From the IMG/VR virus record IMGVR_UViG_2541047851_000007: a stretch of 41,096 bases of DNA. One strand, written 5' to 3'. The number at the start of each line of letters is the position of its first letter. The stretch's first letter is position 1. Shown in pieces: positions 2,196-10,763 of the stretch. Source of the DNA: a virus (lineage: Duplodnaviria > Heunggongvirae > Uroviricota > Caudoviricetes). The notes under the pieces are model-generated. The model was not told the DNA's origin. It did not search any database and saw only the letters and a list, made by a program, of their open reading frames with translations. The translations under genes and the position numbers were made by a program.

Positions 2196-2857
2196 GCCCC
2201 TACATCAAAACCACTGATGAATTCGTTATCCATATCAAAACCAAAAAATTTTGAACCTTCCGATGGGGTTTCCACCGAAGGTGTTTCAATGCCACCCGCC
2301 CACACCCCGGCGGCTTTTACTGTGAGATATCCCTGTTTAATTGCAGCAATTAACTCACGCGATACATCTGAAATATCAGTATCAGGAAAGACCCAGACCG
2401 ATATCGTCATGTCCTGGTTATCGACTATCTGCATTCGCAGCCCGGATCCTGCTGTTGCCGCGTCAAGAATTACCGGAAGCGAATCATTCCGTCCGTCCCA
2501 GTTATTAATCGCAATCTTCGCTTTAAGGATGACACGATAAGTTTCATCGCTGAGGTACATGTATCCGGAATCAGGATCGTATGGCCCCTGCCATACACCC
2601 TGATCATATCCAAGCCCGTCGGTATCCCAGCTGAAATAGACACCTGAGATAGGCTGGCTGACAACACGGCTACGTCCGATCCACAATCCAAGAATGTCAA
2701 GTTGCACACCAACCGCGGAGTCAATATCAAATGCAGTAATCAACCCTCTGGTGGCCGCCGCAACATCAATAAGCGGCCGGGTCATCAGATCAACATGCGC
2801 AAGAAATTTAGGTTTGGTGGCGTGGTAGTTCGTGATTAGTTCGGTGTATTTGCTCAT
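2177..2857 (-). CDS. Baseplate/tail-fibre-proximal protein (YmfQ / Mu gp48-like)
   Basis: 226 aa; position between J-like baseplate gene and fibre; family assignment from memory. Confidence 0.5.
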
Positions 2858-4053
2858 GACTCCACCGTTATAACGATATTTTCCGGGGTACAGGACGCAG
2901 ATTCGTTGTATCTGATATCAATGTTTGATGACGACAAAGCCCCCGGGGATTTCCCAATCGTCAGTTCCTGAATATCGTAATAGCGTGCATTCCCGCCACT
3001 CACCACGCCAAGATTCGCCGGTGAGTAAATGCGACTTAAAAGGACCGAATCACCAATCATCAGACTATTGATATAGTCGGAAATAGCCTGCTGGATCTGC
3101 TGCCCTATCTGTGAGGTATAACCCGTAAAAACTTTTAATTTAATCCGGGCATAAACAGGCACATCACTGGAACGCGAGAATTTGATTACATGGGGATTGC
3201 CGTATTTATCCGGAACCGTAACGGATGTTGTACCGTGAGTGGCTGTCCCCTGGCCTTTATTTCCTCTGATAGCCTGAGCAATATCCGTCACATCACCGCC
3301 ATCCACAATTACAGCAACAGAGTGTGGCGGTAACCCGTTACCGTCCTCTGAACCAGTATCGTTTTCATAGAGTTTGTGGCGGGTTACACCGGTAACATTA
3401 GAAACAGCACCATCCAGTGCTTCAAATGGGGTTATTGATGGCAACGCAACACTTTGCGACTGACGGATACGTAACTCCGCATCAGTTTCTGCCGGAGTGC
3501 CTACAGTAGCTGCAGCAGGATTGGTTACCGAAACCCAGCCACGGGTTGGCGTATTAATTTCAGTGATAGTTCCAGCCAGCGCCGCCACTGCACCACTGAC
3601 GGAACATGTTGCGGTCGCCATCACTGTACCATCCACGCCGACCACCACTGAAGCAGGCAAACGCCATATCACATTATTACCATCTTTCACGCTGCCATTA
3701 ATGATGGTTGTTCCGGCAGTTCCTGTAAGAAGCAAATCAACCGTAGAGTTCGTCGCGCCTTTACGTGAAATACCATTTATTTTCACGTTACTGGTCAGTG
3801 CAGCCCCATAGCCGGTTGCCGGTGAAAAACAGTTGTAGACAGTTATCGCAGTATTATTGGCATCATGAATCGCCAGCGCCATCAGAGCCACCATCTGGCC
3901 GTCTTTGCTGTCCGGTTCGAGGTAGGCATCACTGCCATAAATCTGCTGAAAATAGCTAATCAGGGTGCTGAGTATCGTCTGATAATCAGGCGCACTGATC
4001 CCCTCCGCGGTTACCTTTGCAGATAAACCGAGAGAATCAAGGTTCAGAGCCAT
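2854..4053 (-). CDS. Baseplate J-like protein
   Basis: 399 aa; size and position in baseplate cluster. Confidence 0.6.
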   Translation of the reverse strand: MALNLDSLGLSAKVTAEGISAPDYQTILSTLISYFQQIYGSDAYLEPDSKDGQMVALMALAIHDANNTAITVYNCFSPATGYGAALTSNVKINGISRKGATNSTVDLLLTGTAGTTIINGSVKDGNNVIWRLPASVVVGVDGTVMATATCSVSGAVAALAGTITEINTPTRGWVSVTNPAAATVGTPAETDAELRIRQSQSVALPSITPFEALDGAVSNVTGVTRHKLYENDTGSEDGNGLPPHSVAVIVDGGDVTDIAQAIRGNKGQGTATHGTTSVTVPDKYGNPHVIKFSRSSDVPVYARIKLKVFTGYTSQIGQQIQQAISDYINSLMIGDSVLLSRIYSPANLGVVSGGNARYYDIQELTIGKSPGALSSSNIDIRYNESASCTPENIVITVES

Positions 4054-4406
4054 TACGCCTCCGATGTAACAGTCGTTATTCCATAAAGAGTGTCGATTTC
4101 AGCGGAAAACATGACACGTCGGGTCGTGGTATCCAGCGTCGTATTGAAAGAGAGGATTGATTTAACGCCCTGCGTTTCGAGGATGCGCTTACGGATCGCC
4201 AGGTTGTAGGTTTCCGGCTTCTGCTTACCGAGTACGGACTGGATCCACGGAGTCCCCTCGGTGGTGTCGAGAAACCATTGCCCATACCACAATTCGAATC
4301 GTGTTTTTACCGCCTGCGCCACGGCCTCCGGTGAGTTAATCAGCCAGGTGTCATCACCGCTGCCAAAGGTGTAATCGCCATCGGCGTCTTCACGTCTGTA
4401 TCGCAT
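4053..4406 (-). CDS. Baseplate wedge protein (gp25/W-like)
   Basis: 117 aa; between spike-like and J-like genes; coupled start/stop. Confidence 0.5.
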   Translation of the reverse strand: MRYRREDADGDYTFGSGDDTWLINSPEAVAQAVKTRFELWYGQWFLDTTEGTPWIQSVLGKQKPETYNLAIRKRILETQGVKSILSFNTTLDTTTRRVMFSAEIDTLYGITTVTSEA

Positions 4407-5158
4407 CAGTTTACCCCGTCGGTACTGCTTTCACCGCGCTGAACACCACCATGAGTGTGCGTATCATCGATTGGCTTGCCGTTAGCCTTCACGCCCCCCA
4501 AAAACTCAACAGCACCAGTGATTTTTGAAGCCACACCAGAAACCACAGACCCCACCATGCCCCCCATCCAGGTTAACAGGCCATGAATGGTTACTTTCTC
4601 AGAAAAATCAGCCAGGGGGGCAACCACATCAAGACCACCTGGAGCGACAATTTTAATTTTCCTGGTATCAGGATTAAGCTCAAAATAGGTGCTGCCGTCA
4701 TCACTACGCAACTGTGTGGCACTGGTATTAATACCGCTAATCTTCCTTGCCTGCGACTGGGGACCGACAATACAAAACGCATCCGATAAATCATGCATTC
4801 TGTCATCGACCGACTCCTGTATCCCGCCACTCTGCCACCAGAAATCAATACAACGATCGGCAAAAATCACCAAACATTCATCACCGGCTTTAACTGGGAA
4901 CGTTAGCGTACATCCTCCGCCGCGCGGGAATACCACTGGCACATCCACCAGCAATGGGTAATTTTTGGTAATGCGGTTGCCGTCATTATCCTTTTCAACC
5001 GAACGGATAGCAGGCTGCACAACTGCCGTCACCGCATCAGGATCGAATGACTGAATAATGCCAGGCAAGGCGACACGGATCTGGTTCTTTGTTGTTTCCC
5101 GTTCAGATTTGAATGTTTCGGCAAGGTCGCCGCTGCGGGTCTGGTCAGATACTGCCAT
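4406..5158 (-). CDS. Baseplate spike protein (gpV/Mu gp45-like)
   Basis: 250 aa; C-terminal Gly-rich tail with HTHGG motif typical of spike tips. Confidence 0.55.
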   Translation of the reverse strand: MAVSDQTRSGDLAETFKSERETTKNQIRVALPGIIQSFDPDAVTAVVQPAIRSVEKDNDGNRITKNYPLLVDVPVVFPRGGGCTLTFPVKAGDECLVIFADRCIDFWWQSGGIQESVDDRMHDLSDAFCIVGPQSQARKISGINTSATQLRSDDGSTYFELNPDTRKIKIVAPGGLDVVAPLADFSEKVTIHGLLTWMGGMVGSVVSGVASKITGAVEFLGGVKANGKPIDDTHTHGGVQRGESSTDGVN

Positions 5159-5174
5159 TTAGTAGGCTCCAGAA

Positions 5175-5200
5175 AGCAAAAAACCCGCCGAAGCGGGTTT
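5175..5200 (-). terminator. Intrinsic terminator downstream of HEPN cassette
   Basis: Minus strand AAACCCGC-UUCG-GCGGGUUU followed by UUUUGCUUUCU. Confidence 0.6.
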
Positions 5201-5217
5201 GATAACGTTAATTTTAT

Positions 5218-5613
5218 TCATGAAACTCTAGCAGACTTTAGCTGTTCCCAGCGCTCAAAATAGAGTTCAGCAGCCTCGATTGCATCCTGTCCCATCTCTT
5301 TCGAAACAGTCACATTCGTCAGATCATAGTCAGCTTCATTTCTAGCATCCCGCCACTGGCGAAGTACGAAAGCTAGGGATTTCAGTGTATTTGTCGGGTA
5401 TGGCTCTGATTTGCACTCTGAGGGCGTTGACATATAACCCACAGTATTTTTGTGATGCTCATGGGTAAAATGCGGTATGGCAGTAAGTGAGCTAATAGAC
5501 TCATGTAACATACTGTAATACGCCCTTGAGATAGCGCTTCGAAATCCACTCTCAATATTTTCAGACAGACATAATCGAGCGGTATCGAGAATCTGATTGC
5601 TAGTTACCGACAT
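5218..5613 (-). CDS. HEPN-domain protein (moron, second gene of cassette)
   Basis: 131 aa; N-terminal SRAYYSMLHES and C-terminal WRDARNEADYD...AIEAAELYFE resemble canonical HEPN helices; AT-rich; RBS GGGGTGAG. Confidence 0.55.
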   Translation of the reverse strand: MSVTSNQILDTARLCLSENIESGFRSAISRAYYSMLHESISSLTAIPHFTHEHHKNTVGYMSTPSECKSEPYPTNTLKSLAFVLRQWRDARNEADYDLTNVTVSKEMGQDAIEAAELYFERWEQLKSARVS

Positions 5614-6373
5614 GGTAGCTCACCCCCGTATGCAACTGACGCGGAGAGGTAAATCTAGCTAACAGGGAACAATCATCCAGTTTAGATTCAGCGCAGACTC
5701 TATCAGCCAAGTCGAAGTTCATTTTGGCAATAGTTTTAGGCTCAAGATTTTTAATATCAACAACATAGCAACCGCTTCCACTAAGCTGAACGAAACCTGT
5801 CGTAGCCTTGTATTCACTTAGCAAGCCCCAGATTATGGATGCTAAGGTCTGGAACTGTTCCTTCGAGCACTGTGTGGCGCTATAGAAATTATCCATTTCT
5901 GCAAGGAGTTCTTCTTTGTGCTTCATAGCATTACTCCTGCCTTCTGATTCAGAAAGAAGCTTAATGTGCTCTTCCATATAAAATTTTAACTGTTCACGCT
6001 CGCCGCAACGGTACGCCCAACTGTATGCGTTGTGACTAAAGAGTTTTGTCCGATACTTCTTTGCCAGCGGGACATAGACATCCTTGAGTTCATTATAGCT
6101 AAATGTATTAATTAAAATGTGATGATAGTGCATTGCCAACGTTACATCGTTTACTTCTAGGCTTATCCTGAGATAACGTAACGCGCTTTCAATCTTTCCG
6201 GTTATTGCATCCAGATAAGATAGTGCAATGTTGGTAGCAGGCGTTGGAGAGACAGAAAGTTCCTCTCGAATTTTCTTTTCAGTGAAGGGATCTAAACTTT
6301 CCCTATCCAATAGAAGCGCATTGAATTGTTCAATATATTTTTGCGCTTTTTCTAATGGGATGCCTGCCGCCAT
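5600..6373 (-). CDS. Hypothetical all-alpha protein (moron, first gene of cassette)
   Basis: 257 aa; overlaps the HEPN gene by 14 bp; AT-rich; no recognisable motif. Confidence 0.55.
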   Translation of the reverse strand: MAAGIPLEKAQKYIEQFNALLLDRESLDPFTEKKIREELSVSPTPATNIALSYLDAITGKIESALRYLRISLEVNDVTLAMHYHHILINTFSYNELKDVYVPLAKKYRTKLFSHNAYSWAYRCGEREQLKFYMEEHIKLLSESEGRSNAMKHKEELLAEMDNFYSATQCSKEQFQTLASIIWGLLSEYKATTGFVQLSGSGCYVVDIKNLEPKTIAKMNFDLADRVCAESKLDDCSLLARFTSPRQLHTGVSYHVGN

Positions 6374-6468
6374 GGATTATTTCTCTTACTAAAGGGATTG
6401 TGATTGTGAACTTTGAACAATATCTCGTCAACCTTAAAGCGCTCATCTCGGAAGATTGACATCAAACT
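6374..6468 (-). promoter_or_regulatory. Candidate promoter of HEPN cassette
   Basis: Minus strand TTGACG - 17 bp - CACAAT, then RBS-like AAGAG before the ATG. Confidence 0.3.
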
Positions 6469-6801
6469 TTAGCGTAACGCCTTTTTACACGGGAAAGATC
6501 CAATGATTTTCGGCGCGTCCATGCTGTTCTGCAGCAGCTGGACGTTCAGGAAAGCTTTTCCGTTACGTTTCACAAACTCAAAGCCGTAATTGTTACCATC
6601 ACGGGAAGGCATCAGGCCCATGTCCATTTTCATGTTTGAATAGTCACCATCTTTTCCCAGAAATTTTATCTTCTGTGATGTGACAGTTTCACCGTTAATA
6701 ACAGTCATTCCGTCACCGGTCATCGTGTAGTTGCCGCACTGAATTGCAGCCATCGCCGGAGCAGTAACCATCATAACTAACGCCAAACATAACCGTTTCA
6801 T
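6469..6801 (-). CDS. Small exported protein (signal peptide), unknown function
   Basis: 110 aa; N-terminal MKRLCLALVMMVTAPAMA-AI signal-peptide-like; two Cys; start overlaps stop of upstream baseplate gene. Confidence 0.5.
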   Translation of the reverse strand: MKRLCLALVMMVTAPAMAAIQCGNYTMTGDGMTVINGETVTSQKIKFLGKDGDYSNMKMDMGLMPSRDGNNYGFEFVKRNGKAFLNVQLLQNSMDAPKIIGSFPCKKALR

Positions 6802-7865
6802 TAAAGCACTCTTTCCCTCGCTGATGAGGAAACAAGATCCGCCGCGCCACGCGCTTCACACATCATATCCATGTACCACGCCTGGCCCCTTGTGTCGCCA
6901 GTGTACATAATCCCGCGCACAATATAAACGCCATCCGTTGCGATGCTGGCAGGCTGCGATGTGGTGCCGCTGAGCGTGATATTTCCGTCCGTGTTCTGGT
7001 CGGTGATCTGACCACCAGCCATCGCAATATCGTTGTTCGACAACGCGGTACGATAGACGGAAGCCTGATCCAGCTGAATGAGCCCGTTAACCCGGATGTT
7101 CGGATTAATAAGCGCGCGGACGTTTACGCCGTTACCGATAGTCTGCTGCGGCATTCCAATAAGCCCGGTAGCGCTGTTGAGCACAATCGCTTCGTGAACA
7201 TATTCGTTATTCGCCACCATCTGGCGCTGACCGTCCACGAATTGCCATGTTGCGCCACATTGTCCGGCTACGTTATCCATTAGATGCCGCGTCATGCCAA
7301 AGAGTACCCGCCCCCGAGGGAATACAGTAGCAGGCATTTCAGGCGTCAGGCCTTCTGTCGCGCCTTTGGCTTCGAAGTCTTTCATCAGCGCACGGTTCAC
7401 ATCAGCGACCGTGTAACCGGCAGCCAGCGTCTGTGAGGTTATACTGGTAGCAAAAGCCAGATCAGTATCTGCTGCCTGAATCAGGACGTAGGTATCAACC
7501 GGACTGTCTTTTCCTGTGACCGAGTAGCGAATTTCACCGCTGAAAATCAGTCCGTAGTTGCGGCCATCTCTCTGGCCCACGTCCGCCGCGTCAACTTCCC
7601 GCACGGTCCCTACGTCGCTTGCTGACACCTCCGGCGCGATACCGTCGTAACCGGCAATCAGACGCACTTTCGAAAACTCCTGCCCGGTAATTCGGTTCAC
7701 AGTATCTGCCGAGAGGTTATAAATTTTGATAGTCCCTACCCGGGACGCGCTGCTGATGTTGAACCAGTCGATCGTAAAGGTGACTTTGAAATCACTTAGC
7801 TCAATTCCCTGACCGTTCCCGTCCACAAGCTGCAGCTCGAAATGTCTCATCCAGTTCTGTGACAT
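6801..7865 (-). CDS. Baseplate hub-like protein (Mu gp44-like)
   Basis: 354 aa; position between tape-measure-proximal genes and spike. Confidence 0.45.
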   Translation of the reverse strand: MSQNWMRHFELQLVDGNGQGIELSDFKVTFTIDWFNISSASRVGTIKIYNLSADTVNRITGQEFSKVRLIAGYDGIAPEVSASDVGTVREVDAADVGQRDGRNYGLIFSGEIRYSVTGKDSPVDTYVLIQAADTDLAFATSITSQTLAAGYTVADVNRALMKDFEAKGATEGLTPEMPATVFPRGRVLFGMTRHLMDNVAGQCGATWQFVDGQRQMVANNEYVHEAIVLNSATGLIGMPQQTIGNGVNVRALINPNIRVNGLIQLDQASVYRTALSNNDIAMAGGQITDQNTDGNITLSGTTSQPASIATDGVYIVRGIMYTGDTRGQAWYMDMMCEARGAADLVSSSARERVL

Positions 7866-7867
7866 GC

Positions 7868-8170
7868 TTACTCCGTTGATACCAGTAAATGGCTGCGACC
7901 GCCCAGGTCAGTTTTTGTGGGGTAATCCTGTGTGTTGTCATCACAGACCACCACCAGCTTAAAACCAAGCCCCATACAGGCGTACTGCGCCAGCAGGTCA
8001 GCACCAGTGACGAGAGGAATACCGGAGATTACCGGCTCCCCTCTGTCGTTCTGCAGGTCCATAATCCAGTACAGATCGCGCCATATGATGCTAATCCGCC
8101 AGGTGACACCACCCAGGACGATGCTGAACTGCTGGTTGTCCGCTGTCAGCGGAATTTCCTGAATTGTCAT
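7868..8170 (-). CDS. Tail/baseplate-associated hypothetical protein
   Basis: 100 aa; coupled within tail operon. Confidence 0.4.
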   Translation of the reverse strand: MTIQEIPLTADNQQFSIVLGGVTWRISIIWRDLYWIMDLQNDRGEPVISGIPLVTGADLLAQYACMGLGFKLVVVCDDNTQDYPTKTDLGGRSHLLVSTE

Positions 8171-8757
8171 TAGCCGCCCCCCAGTAATGACGCCACGTTA
8201 CCCGTGATGCTTTTCAGCAGTGAAGTATCTGGAGGCTTTGTGGTTTTGTTGCCGCTGTTCTGTACCGCCGACGTGCTGGCCCCTTCCTTCATGTTGGTTT
8301 TATCCGCGACGGTAATCTGCTGTGTCCGGGAGATAATGACCTCCCTCAGGGTGAGGACAGCGGACAGGACGTTTTCGGTTGTCTTGTCCGTCGTCACTTC
8401 CAGCGCCCGGATCAACATGTTGCTGTACAGCCGTTTACCGGTTACCACATCGAAGGGGATACGGCTTTCCTGCAGACCCAGTAGCTCCTGATACGTCTGC
8501 TGAGGACTCAGGCCGAGCAGGCTGGTAGCCGTCAGGTTACTGGCAAAATCCAGCAATGCGCCGCCACCGGCGAAACCAACCTCCATCACCACTTCTGACG
8601 GTTTTTTATAGGCATGATCAGCGACAGCGGCCCCGACCTCTACCGGATGCTCTGTTATTTCAAGCATATCTGTATGCTTCTCTGAAATAACAACACTGGG
8701 AACAATCATTCCTATTTTTCTGCTCTGCTGATGAAAAAGTGTAGAGAGAATATCCAC
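8170..8757 (-). CDS. Tail/baseplate-associated hypothetical protein
   Basis: 195 aa; immediately downstream of tape measure gene. Confidence 0.4.
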   Translation of the reverse strand: MDILSTLFHQQSRKIGMIVPSVVISEKHTDMLEITEHPVEVGAAVADHAYKKPSEVVMEVGFAGGGALLDFASNLTATSLLGLSPQQTYQELLGLQESRIPFDVVTGKRLYSNMLIRALEVTTDKTTENVLSAVLTLREVIISRTQQITVADKTNMKEGASTSAVQNSGNKTTKPPDTSLLKSITGNVASLLGGG

Positions 8758-10763
8758 TAACCCACCCTCACCTGATTACTTCGCATGACCTGAGCATTTG
8801 CAGACTGTTGCCGACGTGCAACCTCATTACCGACAGCGTGCGGATCTCCGCCACCGTAAATGTGGTAGGTATTTTGCTGGTTAACCTCTGTCACTTTGCC
8901 ACTAATTCCCGCCACGGCAGCCTTATTAATCAGCTCTCGAGAATAGATATTTCTTCCATTCTCATGCTGGATAATGCTGCTCATCAATGCTGACATGGTT
9001 TGCGGATCACTCATATTCAGGGCAGCCCGGGGATCCACTCCCAGTCGTTGCGATACAGCCCTGATATACGCTGTTGTGTTGTTATTATCAGACGCAGGTG
9101 CCCAGGTAGAGATAATTTTCTCCACACTGTTTATTCCCCGTCCGGCGTACAGCATTAACTGACGAGCAAGAGCCCGTAATCCATCAAAGGCAGTTTCAAA
9201 TCTGGCAAATCGCCCGCCCGGGCGTTCAAGAGAAGCCCCTGCCTGACCAGCAAAATTAAGGTTTCCCGGATTGTTATTCCGTTCTCCTCGTTTCGTAGCC
9301 TGTGCATATTGTTCCGGCTCAGCACCTGGAATATCTGACTGAATATTTGCGCCTTTTACGGTATGAGGATTACGACCAAAATCGGTATCAATGCCAAGCC
9401 AGCGCAATGAATCTCCAATATTTTGTTTCGTGTAATCCCAGGATGACTTCGCACTGGCACCAATATTTTCGCGATCAGAGTACAAATACGCAGCATAAGC
9501 CATCCAGCCTTTTAACCACGGCGGGACCGGCAAACCTGATATTTTCCCGAAAGCCCCCAGAACCCTGGATACCCAGACACCCGCGATGAATGTACCAAGG
9601 ATTTCCAGTGCATTTTGCCAGCCGCCAACACCATCTTTTAGTTCCAGAAGGTGATCACGAAGCCAGGTGATCGCATCCTTCGCTTTATCTATTGCCGGTT
9701 GCCATTTTTCCCAGTCGATAAGACTGTTACCGCCTTCTTTCCATGTTTTGTAGTCTTCCCACAAGAGACCGAGAGCCACGATCAGACCGGTAATCAGCCC
9801 TATAGGTGACATCCAGAAAGTAGAGTTAAGTATCCGCATGGCGACAACCAGACCGCCGATAACCTCTATCAGGGTTTTCGTTTCGGCATCCAGTTTCCCC
9901 CACCACTCGATGATATCTCCGACACCATCGACTATCCGAAATGCTACCCGCCCGACTATCTCACCCAGCCAGAGGATCCCCTTTATGACCTTTGTGATGG
10001 TGACTTCAATTTTGGGAAAATTTTCAATTATCTTTTTGCGCAGGTTATCAATCTGCCCCGCCAGTCCGTCCGCAAGATTCGATCCGATTTTGTCCCGCGC
10101 CATCCTGGCCATTTCACCGAGCGATTTCAGCGAGGTCATAAACCGGTTTGACGATAAGGCAGCCTGATCGGCATTAAATCCGATCGCTTTCACCATTTCT
10201 GAATACTGAGCGCTGAACTGCCCCACTCCGCGACGCATAGCCATCAGGGTATTTTCGTCAATGCCCAGCATCTGCGCATACTGGTTAGCCCGGTAATACG
10301 GCATGCTGCTGAGTTTCTGTCCAACGCCCGTAAAGATAGCAGCCATGTCACGCATGTTACCGCTGGCATCACGGGTCTGTACGCCCAGGCGATTCAGAAA
10401 GCCTTCTGCTCCGGGATTGTTACGAATAAACCGGGAGAGGCTTTCCAGAGAAGATCGCGCAGCGTCCACACTGCCGCCAACCTGCGAAACCGCATAGCCA
10501 ATAGACTGAATTCCCTGGACCGTCGCGCCGGTGCGCTGTGACGCCCAGTAAAGATTATCCAGGCCGGAGGCGATCTTAGCCGTGAAGGCCACCACGGACA
10601 GCGCAGCCCCTTCAACAGCCAGCCCCATTTTGATGACATTTGCAGTTGTACCGGCGAGGACAGAACCGAACTTTTTCGCTCCTGCATCATCCACACTGAA
10701 GCCAAGCGAGACGAGGAAATCTTTAATAGTTTCAGCGTTCATTATCCTCTCTCCATTTCTCAA
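8757..10763 (-). CDS. Tail tape measure protein
   Basis: 668 aa; helical with hydrophobic central segments; position after tail chaperone. Confidence 0.8.
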   Translation of the reverse strand: MRNGERIMNAETIKDFLVSLGFSVDDAGAKKFGSVLAGTTANVIKMGLAVEGAALSVVAFTAKIASGLDNLYWASQRTGATVQGIQSIGYAVSQVGGSVDAARSSLESLSRFIRNNPGAEGFLNRLGVQTRDASGNMRDMAAIFTGVGQKLSSMPYYRANQYAQMLGIDENTLMAMRRGVGQFSAQYSEMVKAIGFNADQAALSSNRFMTSLKSLGEMARMARDKIGSNLADGLAGQIDNLRKKIIENFPKIEVTITKVIKGILWLGEIVGRVAFRIVDGVGDIIEWWGKLDAETKTLIEVIGGLVVAMRILNSTFWMSPIGLITGLIVALGLLWEDYKTWKEGGNSLIDWEKWQPAIDKAKDAITWLRDHLLELKDGVGGWQNALEILGTFIAGVWVSRVLGAFGKISGLPVPPWLKGWMAYAAYLYSDRENIGASAKSSWDYTKQNIGDSLRWLGIDTDFGRNPHTVKGANIQSDIPGAEPEQYAQATKRGERNNNPGNLNFAGQAGASLERPGGRFARFETAFDGLRALARQLMLYAGRGINSVEKIISTWAPASDNNNTTAYIRAVSQRLGVDPRAALNMSDPQTMSALMSSIIQHENGRNIYSRELINKAAVAGISGKVTEVNQQNTYHIYGGGDPHAVGNEVARRQQSANAQVMRSNQVRVG

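Follow-up and report, generated by a model that had tools for sequence, protein, structure and literature searches.

The DNA analysed here (the window) is a 41,096-nt stretch of a tailed-phage genome (Caudoviricetes; IMG/VR record IMGVR_UViG_2541047851_000007) in which two minus-strand genes form a cassette located between the gene of a 110-aa protein and the spike gene of a temperate myovirus. The downstream gene encodes a 131-aa HEPN-domain protein and the upstream gene a 257-aa partner predicted to fold as a solenoid resembling tetratricopeptide repeats (TPR). The two genes are an obligate pair, and by its composition and boundaries the region qualifies as a moron, that is, exchangeable cargo between the baseplate-hub and spike genes. 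The pair is best classed as a HEPN-based two-gene candidate for toxin-antitoxin (TA) or defence functions, with a partner class that is previously undescribed as far as the literature and databases were searched.

Both open reading frames (ORF) named in the original prediction were confirmed on the minus strand, each with an ATG start: the partner gene extends over positions 5600-6373 and the HEPN gene over 5218-5613, and they overlap by 14 bp (5600-5613), the ATG of the HEPN gene lying within the 3' end of the partner gene. A Shine-Dalgarno-like run, GGGGTGAG, is found 7-14 nt ahead of this ATG and, together with the overlap, implies translational coupling; short overlaps between both genes also occur in most homologous loci. 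The AT-richness reported earlier relative to the flanking baseplate genes holds in a sliding-window analysis, with a GC content of 42.1% for the cassette vs 50.8% for the whole window. Only 0.3% of all windows of 1279 bp have a GC content this low, and the minimum for the stretch as a whole is located inside the cassette. At third codon positions, the GC content is 0.40-0.43 in the cassette, as opposed to 0.61 in the hub gene and 0.49 in the spike gene. Both genes are under strong purifying selection (dN/dS of 0.06-0.10), and the HEPN ORF was found on at least 1000 contigs. Protein accessions are WP_000718774.1 for the partner and, as an example, AQV47925.1 for the HEPN protein.

Some database records describe the pair incompletely. 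The 131-aa ORF was left uncalled by RefSeq/PGAP in two loci of our collection, L002 (NZ_CP025703.1) and L020 (NZ_CP134718.1), which match the window at 99.9-100% DNA identity across the HEPN ORF region, while the annotations of strain KOr019 and of many GenBank records do include it; the missing calls look like an annotation gap. The 257-aa and 131-aa proteins also share one 90%-identity protein cluster (P0189/P0190), with the partner as representative, even though their sequences are unrelated, which is probably a clustering artefact arising, for instance, from a fused or read-through gene call. Finally, some copies are damaged (L028/L083, which correspond to IMGVR_UViG_2585427779_000001, as well as L057, L058, L087 and L089); these include one truncated HEPN ORF of 282 bp and several partner genes split by frameshift, a pattern that indicates occasional decay of one member of the pair.

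Scans of the 131-aa protein as a single sequence against Pfam, NCBIfam and PADLOC returned no significant match, and the protein belongs to PHROG 5176, annotated as "unknown function". Its assignment to the HEPN domain is supported by several lines of in silico evidence. A family profile built from 22 relatives that are 48-89% identical matched two PDB entries described as "HEPN domain-containing protein", 9xbd (E=2.6e-6) and 9xbc (E=1.1e-5), followed by AF0298/UPF0332 (2hsb, E=2e-3) with His54 and the RNxxDY block aligned; a literature search on the code 9xbd retrieved no paper. The AlphaFold2 (AF2) model is all-helical, with a predicted local distance difference test (pLDDT) score of 88.6. 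The best Foldseek match of this model was again 2hsb (probability 1.0, template-modelling score 0.57), followed by HepT/SO_3166, the HEPN domain of sacsin and 4nqf, all with E-values above 0.03; such weak E-values are usual for small helical bundles. Pfam family HEPN (PF05168) is matched by seven of the 22 relatives (best E=3.8e-5) and by two distant homologues, while the window protein itself is unmatched, and relatives are named "HEPN domain-containing" or "UPF0332 family" in some sources. The two helical blocks singled out by the original prediction, SRAYYSMLHE and RDARNEADYD, prove to be the most conserved of the family. Taken as profile and model evidence, these data identify the 131-aa protein as a HEPN domain of the AF0298/UPF0332 HEPN-T type with a putative ribonuclease (RNase) role.

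The canonical Rx4-6H motif is absent from this family, a Tyr being invariant at the His position in all 22 relatives and in the distant pairs. What is found instead is the invariant block R88-D-A-R91-N-E-A-D95-Y96 (Rx4Y), which lies at the end of helix 74-96, together with an invariant H53/H54 located between helices 2 and 3, of which H54 aligns with the His of 9xbd and AF0298. The invariance of R91 and H54 extends over the 22 sequences, down to 48% identity, and residues R25, R30, H37, H53, H54, R88, R91, N92, D95 and Y96 are all retained over wide divergence; even the most distant pairs keep the Arg, the Asp-Tyr and the His (RILSDY with NHQG; RVNSDY with GVHM). In AF0298-like HEPN-T proteins and in AbiV, the motif has lost its His but retains the Arg, and another conserved His, in the insert between helices 2 and 3, could complete an alternative active site (Anantharaman et al. 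2013, PMC3710099). The 131-aa family shows exactly this combination of a retained Arg and an alternative His. The closest structural homologues of AbiV include AF0298, and AbiV itself has since been shown to be an RNase that needs no metal, degrades rRNA and is the toxin in an abortive-infection system (bioRxiv 10.1101/2024.05.05.592566; review PMC13064643). Since AbiV is an active rRNase, a catalytic role is plausible for the AF0298-like clade and, by analogy, for the 131-aa protein.

The same residues bear on another explanation, namely that the HEPN protein binds RNA or a nucleotide that it leaves uncleaved, the pair modulating host or phage gene expression, by way of lysogenic conversion or regulation, instead of killing the cell. 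The Tyr that replaces the His of Rx4-6H and the acidic isoelectric point of the protein would both fit such a role, and non-canonical HEPN domains may act non-catalytically (Anantharaman et al., PMC3710099). Yet the set of ten invariant residues looks like an active site and the related AbiV is an active RNase (10.1101/2024.05.05.592566), so that a non-catalytic pair is regarded here as decidedly unlikely.

The 257-aa partner gave no significant match in Pfam, NCBIfam or PADLOC, and its PHROG is also of "unknown function". Its AF2 model is of very high confidence (pLDDT 91.7, predicted template-modelling score 0.86). It starts with helix pairs over about residues 7-139 and continues with two long helices (146-187), to which a C-terminal beta-beta-alpha-beta domain of small size (192-242) and a disordered tail (248-257) are added. 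The partner is predicted to be a solenoid, tentatively TPR-like, followed by a small alpha/beta domain. As expected from the original prediction, which had set the pair apart from standard HEPN/MNT pairs, no nucleotidyltransferase family was matched in Pfam and neither a nucleotidyltransferase fold nor a GSx(n)DxD motif was found in the partner. When 1.84 billion representative proteins were searched exhaustively with a profile, only ca. 121 representatives of the partner family were recovered, nearly all of them 245-270 aa long and matching end to end, which points to a small family with one fixed architecture. The sole sequence feature kept family-wide is a helix with (M/L)(N/D)x(D/E)LA at residues 212-228. 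In distant members, the C-terminal domain has sub-threshold similarity to Pfam CesT_Tir_1 (E=0.02) and FliW (E=0.05), as seen in the partner homologues at L131 2181-3011 and L021 5001-5774; this similarity is a lead towards a possible protein-binding module.

A second block of the partner, H136-x-K-L-L-S-x2-E-x-R...H152-K-x-E-L, is strongly conserved and could be taken to mean that the roles are reversed or otherwise different, the 257-aa protein acting as effector (it could, for instance, sequester a protein of the host or of a phage via its TPR surface) and the HEPN protein as its regulator or antidote. Neither protein carries a direct assignment of toxicity and, to our knowledge, which member is the toxin has been settled for only part of the families with classical HEPN-MNT pairs of this clade. 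This block (HIKLLSE-EGR-KHKEELL) is however confined to the closer subfamily and lost in distant members, which argues against a universal catalytic site, and no enzymatic fold was detected in the predicted structure of the partner. The downstream, smaller and slower-evolving gene of such a pair is usually the toxin, and here that gene encodes the HEPN protein. An exchange of roles is therefore considered very unlikely.

The association of the two genes was surveyed across homologous loci. The HEPN gene occurs directly downstream of the partner gene and on the same strand in 60 of 60 partner loci; conversely, the partner lies upstream in 65 of the 66 HEPN loci that have room upstream, the exception carrying a shorter ORF at the same place. 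No MNT gene was seen adjoining any family member in the loci surveyed. Pairwise divergences of the two proteins are correlated (r=0.97), the HEPN protein being the slower-evolving of the two.

Predicted transcription signals frame the cassette. In the 95-bp gap upstream of the partner gene, a putative sigma-70-like promoter on the minus strand (6403-6431) consists of a -35 hexamer TTGACG (6431-6426), a 17-nt spacer and a -10 hexamer CACAAT (6408-6403) whose end is 29 nt from the partner ATG; the sequence scan gave it a consensus score of 9/12. This site corresponds to the promoter-like element reported earlier, and it recurs in homologous cassettes carried by unrelated phage backbones, in which a TTGAC-type -35 and a TA(G/A)AAT-type -10 are found 29-32 nt before the ATG, with a better -10 (TAGAAT or TAAAAT) in many cases. 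On the other side, an intrinsic terminator occupies 5175-5200 on the minus strand (AAACCCGC-TTCG-GCGGGTTT then TTTGCTTTCT at 5200-5181), with a stem of 8 pairs, 5 of which are G-C, a TTCG loop and a T-run. A hairpin of the form ACCCGC(C)-loop-(G)GCGGGT followed by 5-7 T is present 3' of the HEPN gene in almost every homologous locus, unrelated backbones included, and variants of the stem preserve the pairing (ACCCAGC/GCTGGGT). The original prediction had assigned a strong terminator to the cassette itself; the 8-bp stem and the T-run stand, but the structure lies within sequence common to relatives that lack the cassette and hence belongs to a shared boundary of the insertion slot. That promoter and terminator are kept across unrelated backbones suggests that the cassette is a self-contained, horizontally exchanged transcription unit, i.e. 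a moron.

The surroundings of the cassette correspond to the tail/baseplate module of a SEN34/Brunovirus-like temperate myovirus and represent an E. coli prophage. In transcription order, this module comprises the tape measure (8757-10763), a Dit-like protein (8170-8757), the baseplate plug (7868-8170), the hub (6801-7865), the 110-aa signal-peptide protein (6469-6801, minus strand, PHROG 3443), the cassette, the spike (4406-5158), the sheath initiator (4053-4406) and baseplate J (2854-4053). Comparison by blastn with relatives L001, L003, L016, L017 and L018 delimits the replaceable cargo segment of this hub-spike slot to 5203-6481: homology to cassette-less relatives ends at 5190-5202 and restarts at 6480-6482. 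The extent initially proposed, 5175-6468, is close to these breakpoints.

When 5,426 complete E. coli genomes were queried with the hub-to-spike stretch, 352 matched, so that the hub-spike slot is found in ca. 6% of them; 27 of these 352 genomes with this prophage type carry the cassette. Closely related prophages, with hub and spike 95-99% identical, are thus devoid of it in ca. 92% of cases. Other cargo occupies the same position elsewhere: a 170-aa protein in phage 606R2, a 266-aa protein in Yersinia phage YP3, 77-aa and 138-aa proteins in SEN34 and, in further phages, a DUF2335 membrane protein, DUF4282 proteins, a YafO-family toxin with a 190-aa upstream partner and other hypothetical proteins (the alternative-cargo loci are L016 808-1798 in NZ_CP173561.1, L017 1111-1683 and L018 1118-2277). 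In strain T28R, the slot contains a 243-aa and 142-aa pair which is a distant version of the same module, as supported by hhalign (HEPN probability 97%, E=7e-11; partner 72%, E=3.5e-5). This range of alternative cargo designates the hub-spike slot as a cargo hotspot.

Such a distribution leaves hardly any room for the view that both proteins are phage-specific accessories of tail or baseplate assembly or structure. Their location within the baseplate operon, between hub and spike, would be in line with that role. The pair is however missing from most close relatives, which have unrelated cargo instead, and is found in non-tail regions of lambdoid phages (after O/P; from Q to the lysis genes), and the cassette has its own predicted promoter and terminator and a deviant GC content; a structural role is effectively excluded by these data. 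The original prediction had named a match of both proteins to conserved virion components at this position in related phages as the finding that would speak against it; the cassette is absent from most of these relatives, and other cargo takes its place. The earlier description of a moron-type insertion is borne out by the predicted promoter and terminator, the deviant GC content and a presence/absence polymorphism with sharp breakpoints at 5203 and 6481.

The 110-aa protein encoded next to the slot has a clear signal peptide (MKRLCLALVMMVTAPAMA/A) and bears the RefSeq name "STY1065/STY2022 family phage-derived protein". Its gene is located between the hub gene and the slot in nearly all relatives and is far more divergent than the hub (35-100% identity). 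It is predicted to be a secreted or periplasmic prophage protein.

Most copies of the pair reside in the hub-spike slot of SEN34-like myoviruses, including backbones in which the hub is only 47-65% identical. Others were found elsewhere: in lambda-like siphoviruses, flanked by the tape measure and gpM genes (L012, L046); flanked by the tail tube and tape measure genes (L013, L048, L059); 3' of lambda O/P (L063); between antiterminator Q and the lysis genes, where a methyltransferase and HicAB are neighbours (L021-L023); and adjoining a gpS-like gene (L041). These locations indicate that the cassette moves between unrelated phages, with at least five unrelated sites outside the hub-spike slot. 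Relatives are recorded from Enterobacterales (Escherichia, Citrobacter, Cronobacter, Klebsiella, Kluyvera, Enterobacter, Lelliottia, Rahnella, Cedecea, Edwardsiella, Yersinia, Phytobacter and Hafnia) and from Aeromonas. Two lambdoid loci have further accessory genes. In L021 (6700-8470; Logan SRR20799009 contig), a distant HEPN pair, an N6/N4 DNA methyltransferase and HicA/HicB form a small accessory-gene island. In L063 (8296-8793), a 165-aa ORF located ca. 1.1 kb downstream of the nin-region pair matches the Pfam RiboL-PSP-HEPN family below the cut-off (E=6e-4) and may be a second HEPN cargo gene.

Comparison with known systems helps to define what is particular to the pair. Classical AF0298-like HEPN-T proteins (UPF0332; 2hsb, 9xbd/9xbc) are paired or fused with MNT and concentrated in archaea and thermophiles, whereas the present subfamily is paired only with the TPR-like 257-aa protein and occurs in temperate phages. 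The type VII TA system HepT-MntA (Shewanella SO_3166/SO_3165, Aphanizomenon, Legionella) likewise has a small dimeric HEPN toxin whose gene adjoins that of a dedicated protein partner. HepT, a member of the DUF86 clade with an RX4HXY motif, is neutralised by the MNT enzyme via AMPylation of a Tyr. This motif is absent from the 131-aa protein (RNEADYDL), which has a Tyr at the His position and no Tyr two residues later; its motif is Rx4Y and the partner has neither a nucleotidyltransferase fold nor GSx(n)DxD. With a partner lacking nucleotidyltransferase features, any neutralisation would work differently from that of HepT-MntA, most likely by direct binding.

AbiV of Lactococcus is also an AF0298-group-related HEPN protein with a non-canonical active site, but it is 201 aa long and is controlled by an RNA antitoxin (abiV2) in a type III TA system, while the cassette has a protein partner. 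No tandem repeats were detected in 5100-6900, and the only Rfam matches in this interval were sub-threshold and driven by the terminator hairpin. A type III RNA antitoxin or riboregulator was thus rejected, there being no repeat or RNA element and the upstream gene being protein-coding and under purifying selection. The likeness to type II TA lies in two adjacent, co-directional and overlapping genes that are inherited together, neutralisation being conjectural here. Another resemblance is to DS-28, a validated anti-phage system of E. coli reported with DefensePredictor, which also combines a small HEPN protein (163 aa) with a 252-aa hypothetical protein; in DS-28, however, the genes are in the opposite order, the HEPN motif is the canonical RNSVAH and the sequences, as judged by eye, are unrelated to those of the cassette, and on these three grounds its identity with the cassette was rejected. 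Accessions of the two cassette proteins were also absent from the DefensePredictor data searched. At the level of the slot, the P2/P4 hotspots (Rousset et al. 2022) and the lambdoid Q-lysis and nin-region morons similarly provide a fixed position, with conserved phage genes on either side, for alternative low-GC and self-transcribed cargo, including TA-like modules. Unlike the P2/P4 hotspots, the slot between hub and spike in SEN34-like myoviruses had no description in the literature searched, nor had this family of cargo.

The prediction that the pair is undescribed also agrees with the database results. In PADLOC-DB v2.0.0, no family was matched at E<=1 by either cassette protein, and the cargo found in the slot of relatives had no significant PADLOC match, the best being HEPN_IX (E=0.009) for the distant HEPN protein of T28R. 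No paper on the pair was found by a search outside which much subscription literature and the newest defence catalogues lay.

We propose that the cassette is a type II-like TA or abortive-infection module expressed from the lysogen, a reading to which we give about an even chance. The HEPN protein would be the toxin, presumably a dimer like other HEPN RNases, and would be bound and silenced by the TPR-like partner. Infection by another phage would free it, either by capture of a phage protein at the TPR surface or, alternatively, because a labile partner is lost once the host is shut off. The HEPN protein, now free, would then cut an essential RNA (rRNA or tRNA) and the infection would be aborted.

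Several points weigh against this proposal. We infer toxicity, RNase activity and phage protection, as well as neutralisation and trigger, from sequence, structure and analogy. The canonical catalytic His is absent, and the HEPN protein could be a non-catalytic binder of RNA or nucleotides; it is also mildly acidic (isoelectric point of ca. 5.7), unlike many RNA-binding toxins. The partner has no detectable helix-turn-helix or ribbon-helix-helix, while type II antitoxins typically carry a DNA-binding domain. The correlation between the divergences of the two proteins is driven by linkage and is no proof of physical interaction. The absence of a PADLOC match fits novelty and fits a non-defence role equally well. 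Lastly, promoter-like sites were no more frequent in a 3-kb scan than in shuffles and the -10 hexamer of the window, CACAAT, is weak; the promoter is nonetheless credible because the -35/-10 pair is conserved across unrelated backbones.

A further explanation is plain addiction, in which post-segregational killing would stabilise the prophage or a selfish cassette with no specific anti-phage role. The layout of two overlapping genes with what resembles an antitoxin in first position would suit an addiction module, other prophages have a YafO-type TA in this slot, lambdoid copies have HicAB next to them, and the cassette is highly mobile between backbones. The partner is however large (257 aa), with a TPR-like protein-binding solenoid and no DNA-binding domain, and thus more sensor-like than a labile antitoxin, and members of the family are restricted to phage genomes, where they occupy classic moron sites that often hold defence cargo. 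Addiction as the sole role appears unlikely, though it retains some weight; addiction and anti-phage roles are not mutually exclusive and can coexist.

The module proposed above would take a more specific form if the TPR-like antitoxin were a direct sensor of an invading phage protein which, once bound, frees the Rx4Y + His HEPN RNase and aborts the infection. The pair would then represent an unrecognised phage-borne immune family, a possibility that we put forward tentatively and with more doubt than confidence. If true, it would parallel fused sensor-toxins such as CapRel, with the two functions divided between two proteins, and the partner would stand in for the MNT of classical HEPN-T modules without being an enzyme.

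Many candidate prophage defence cassettes are known, and this one is compact, widespread and cleanly delimited; with a size of 1.3 kb and its own predicted promoter and terminator, it is easy to clone and test. If functional, it would define a new partner class for HEPN toxins, in which a TPR-like binder takes the place of a nucleotidyltransferase or an RNA, and would make available, in E. coli, a tractable member of the AF0298/UPF0332 clade, which is poorly understood and whose active site lacks the canonical His. The hub-spike gap of SEN34-like prophages would then be a cargo hotspot in which further systems could be sought.

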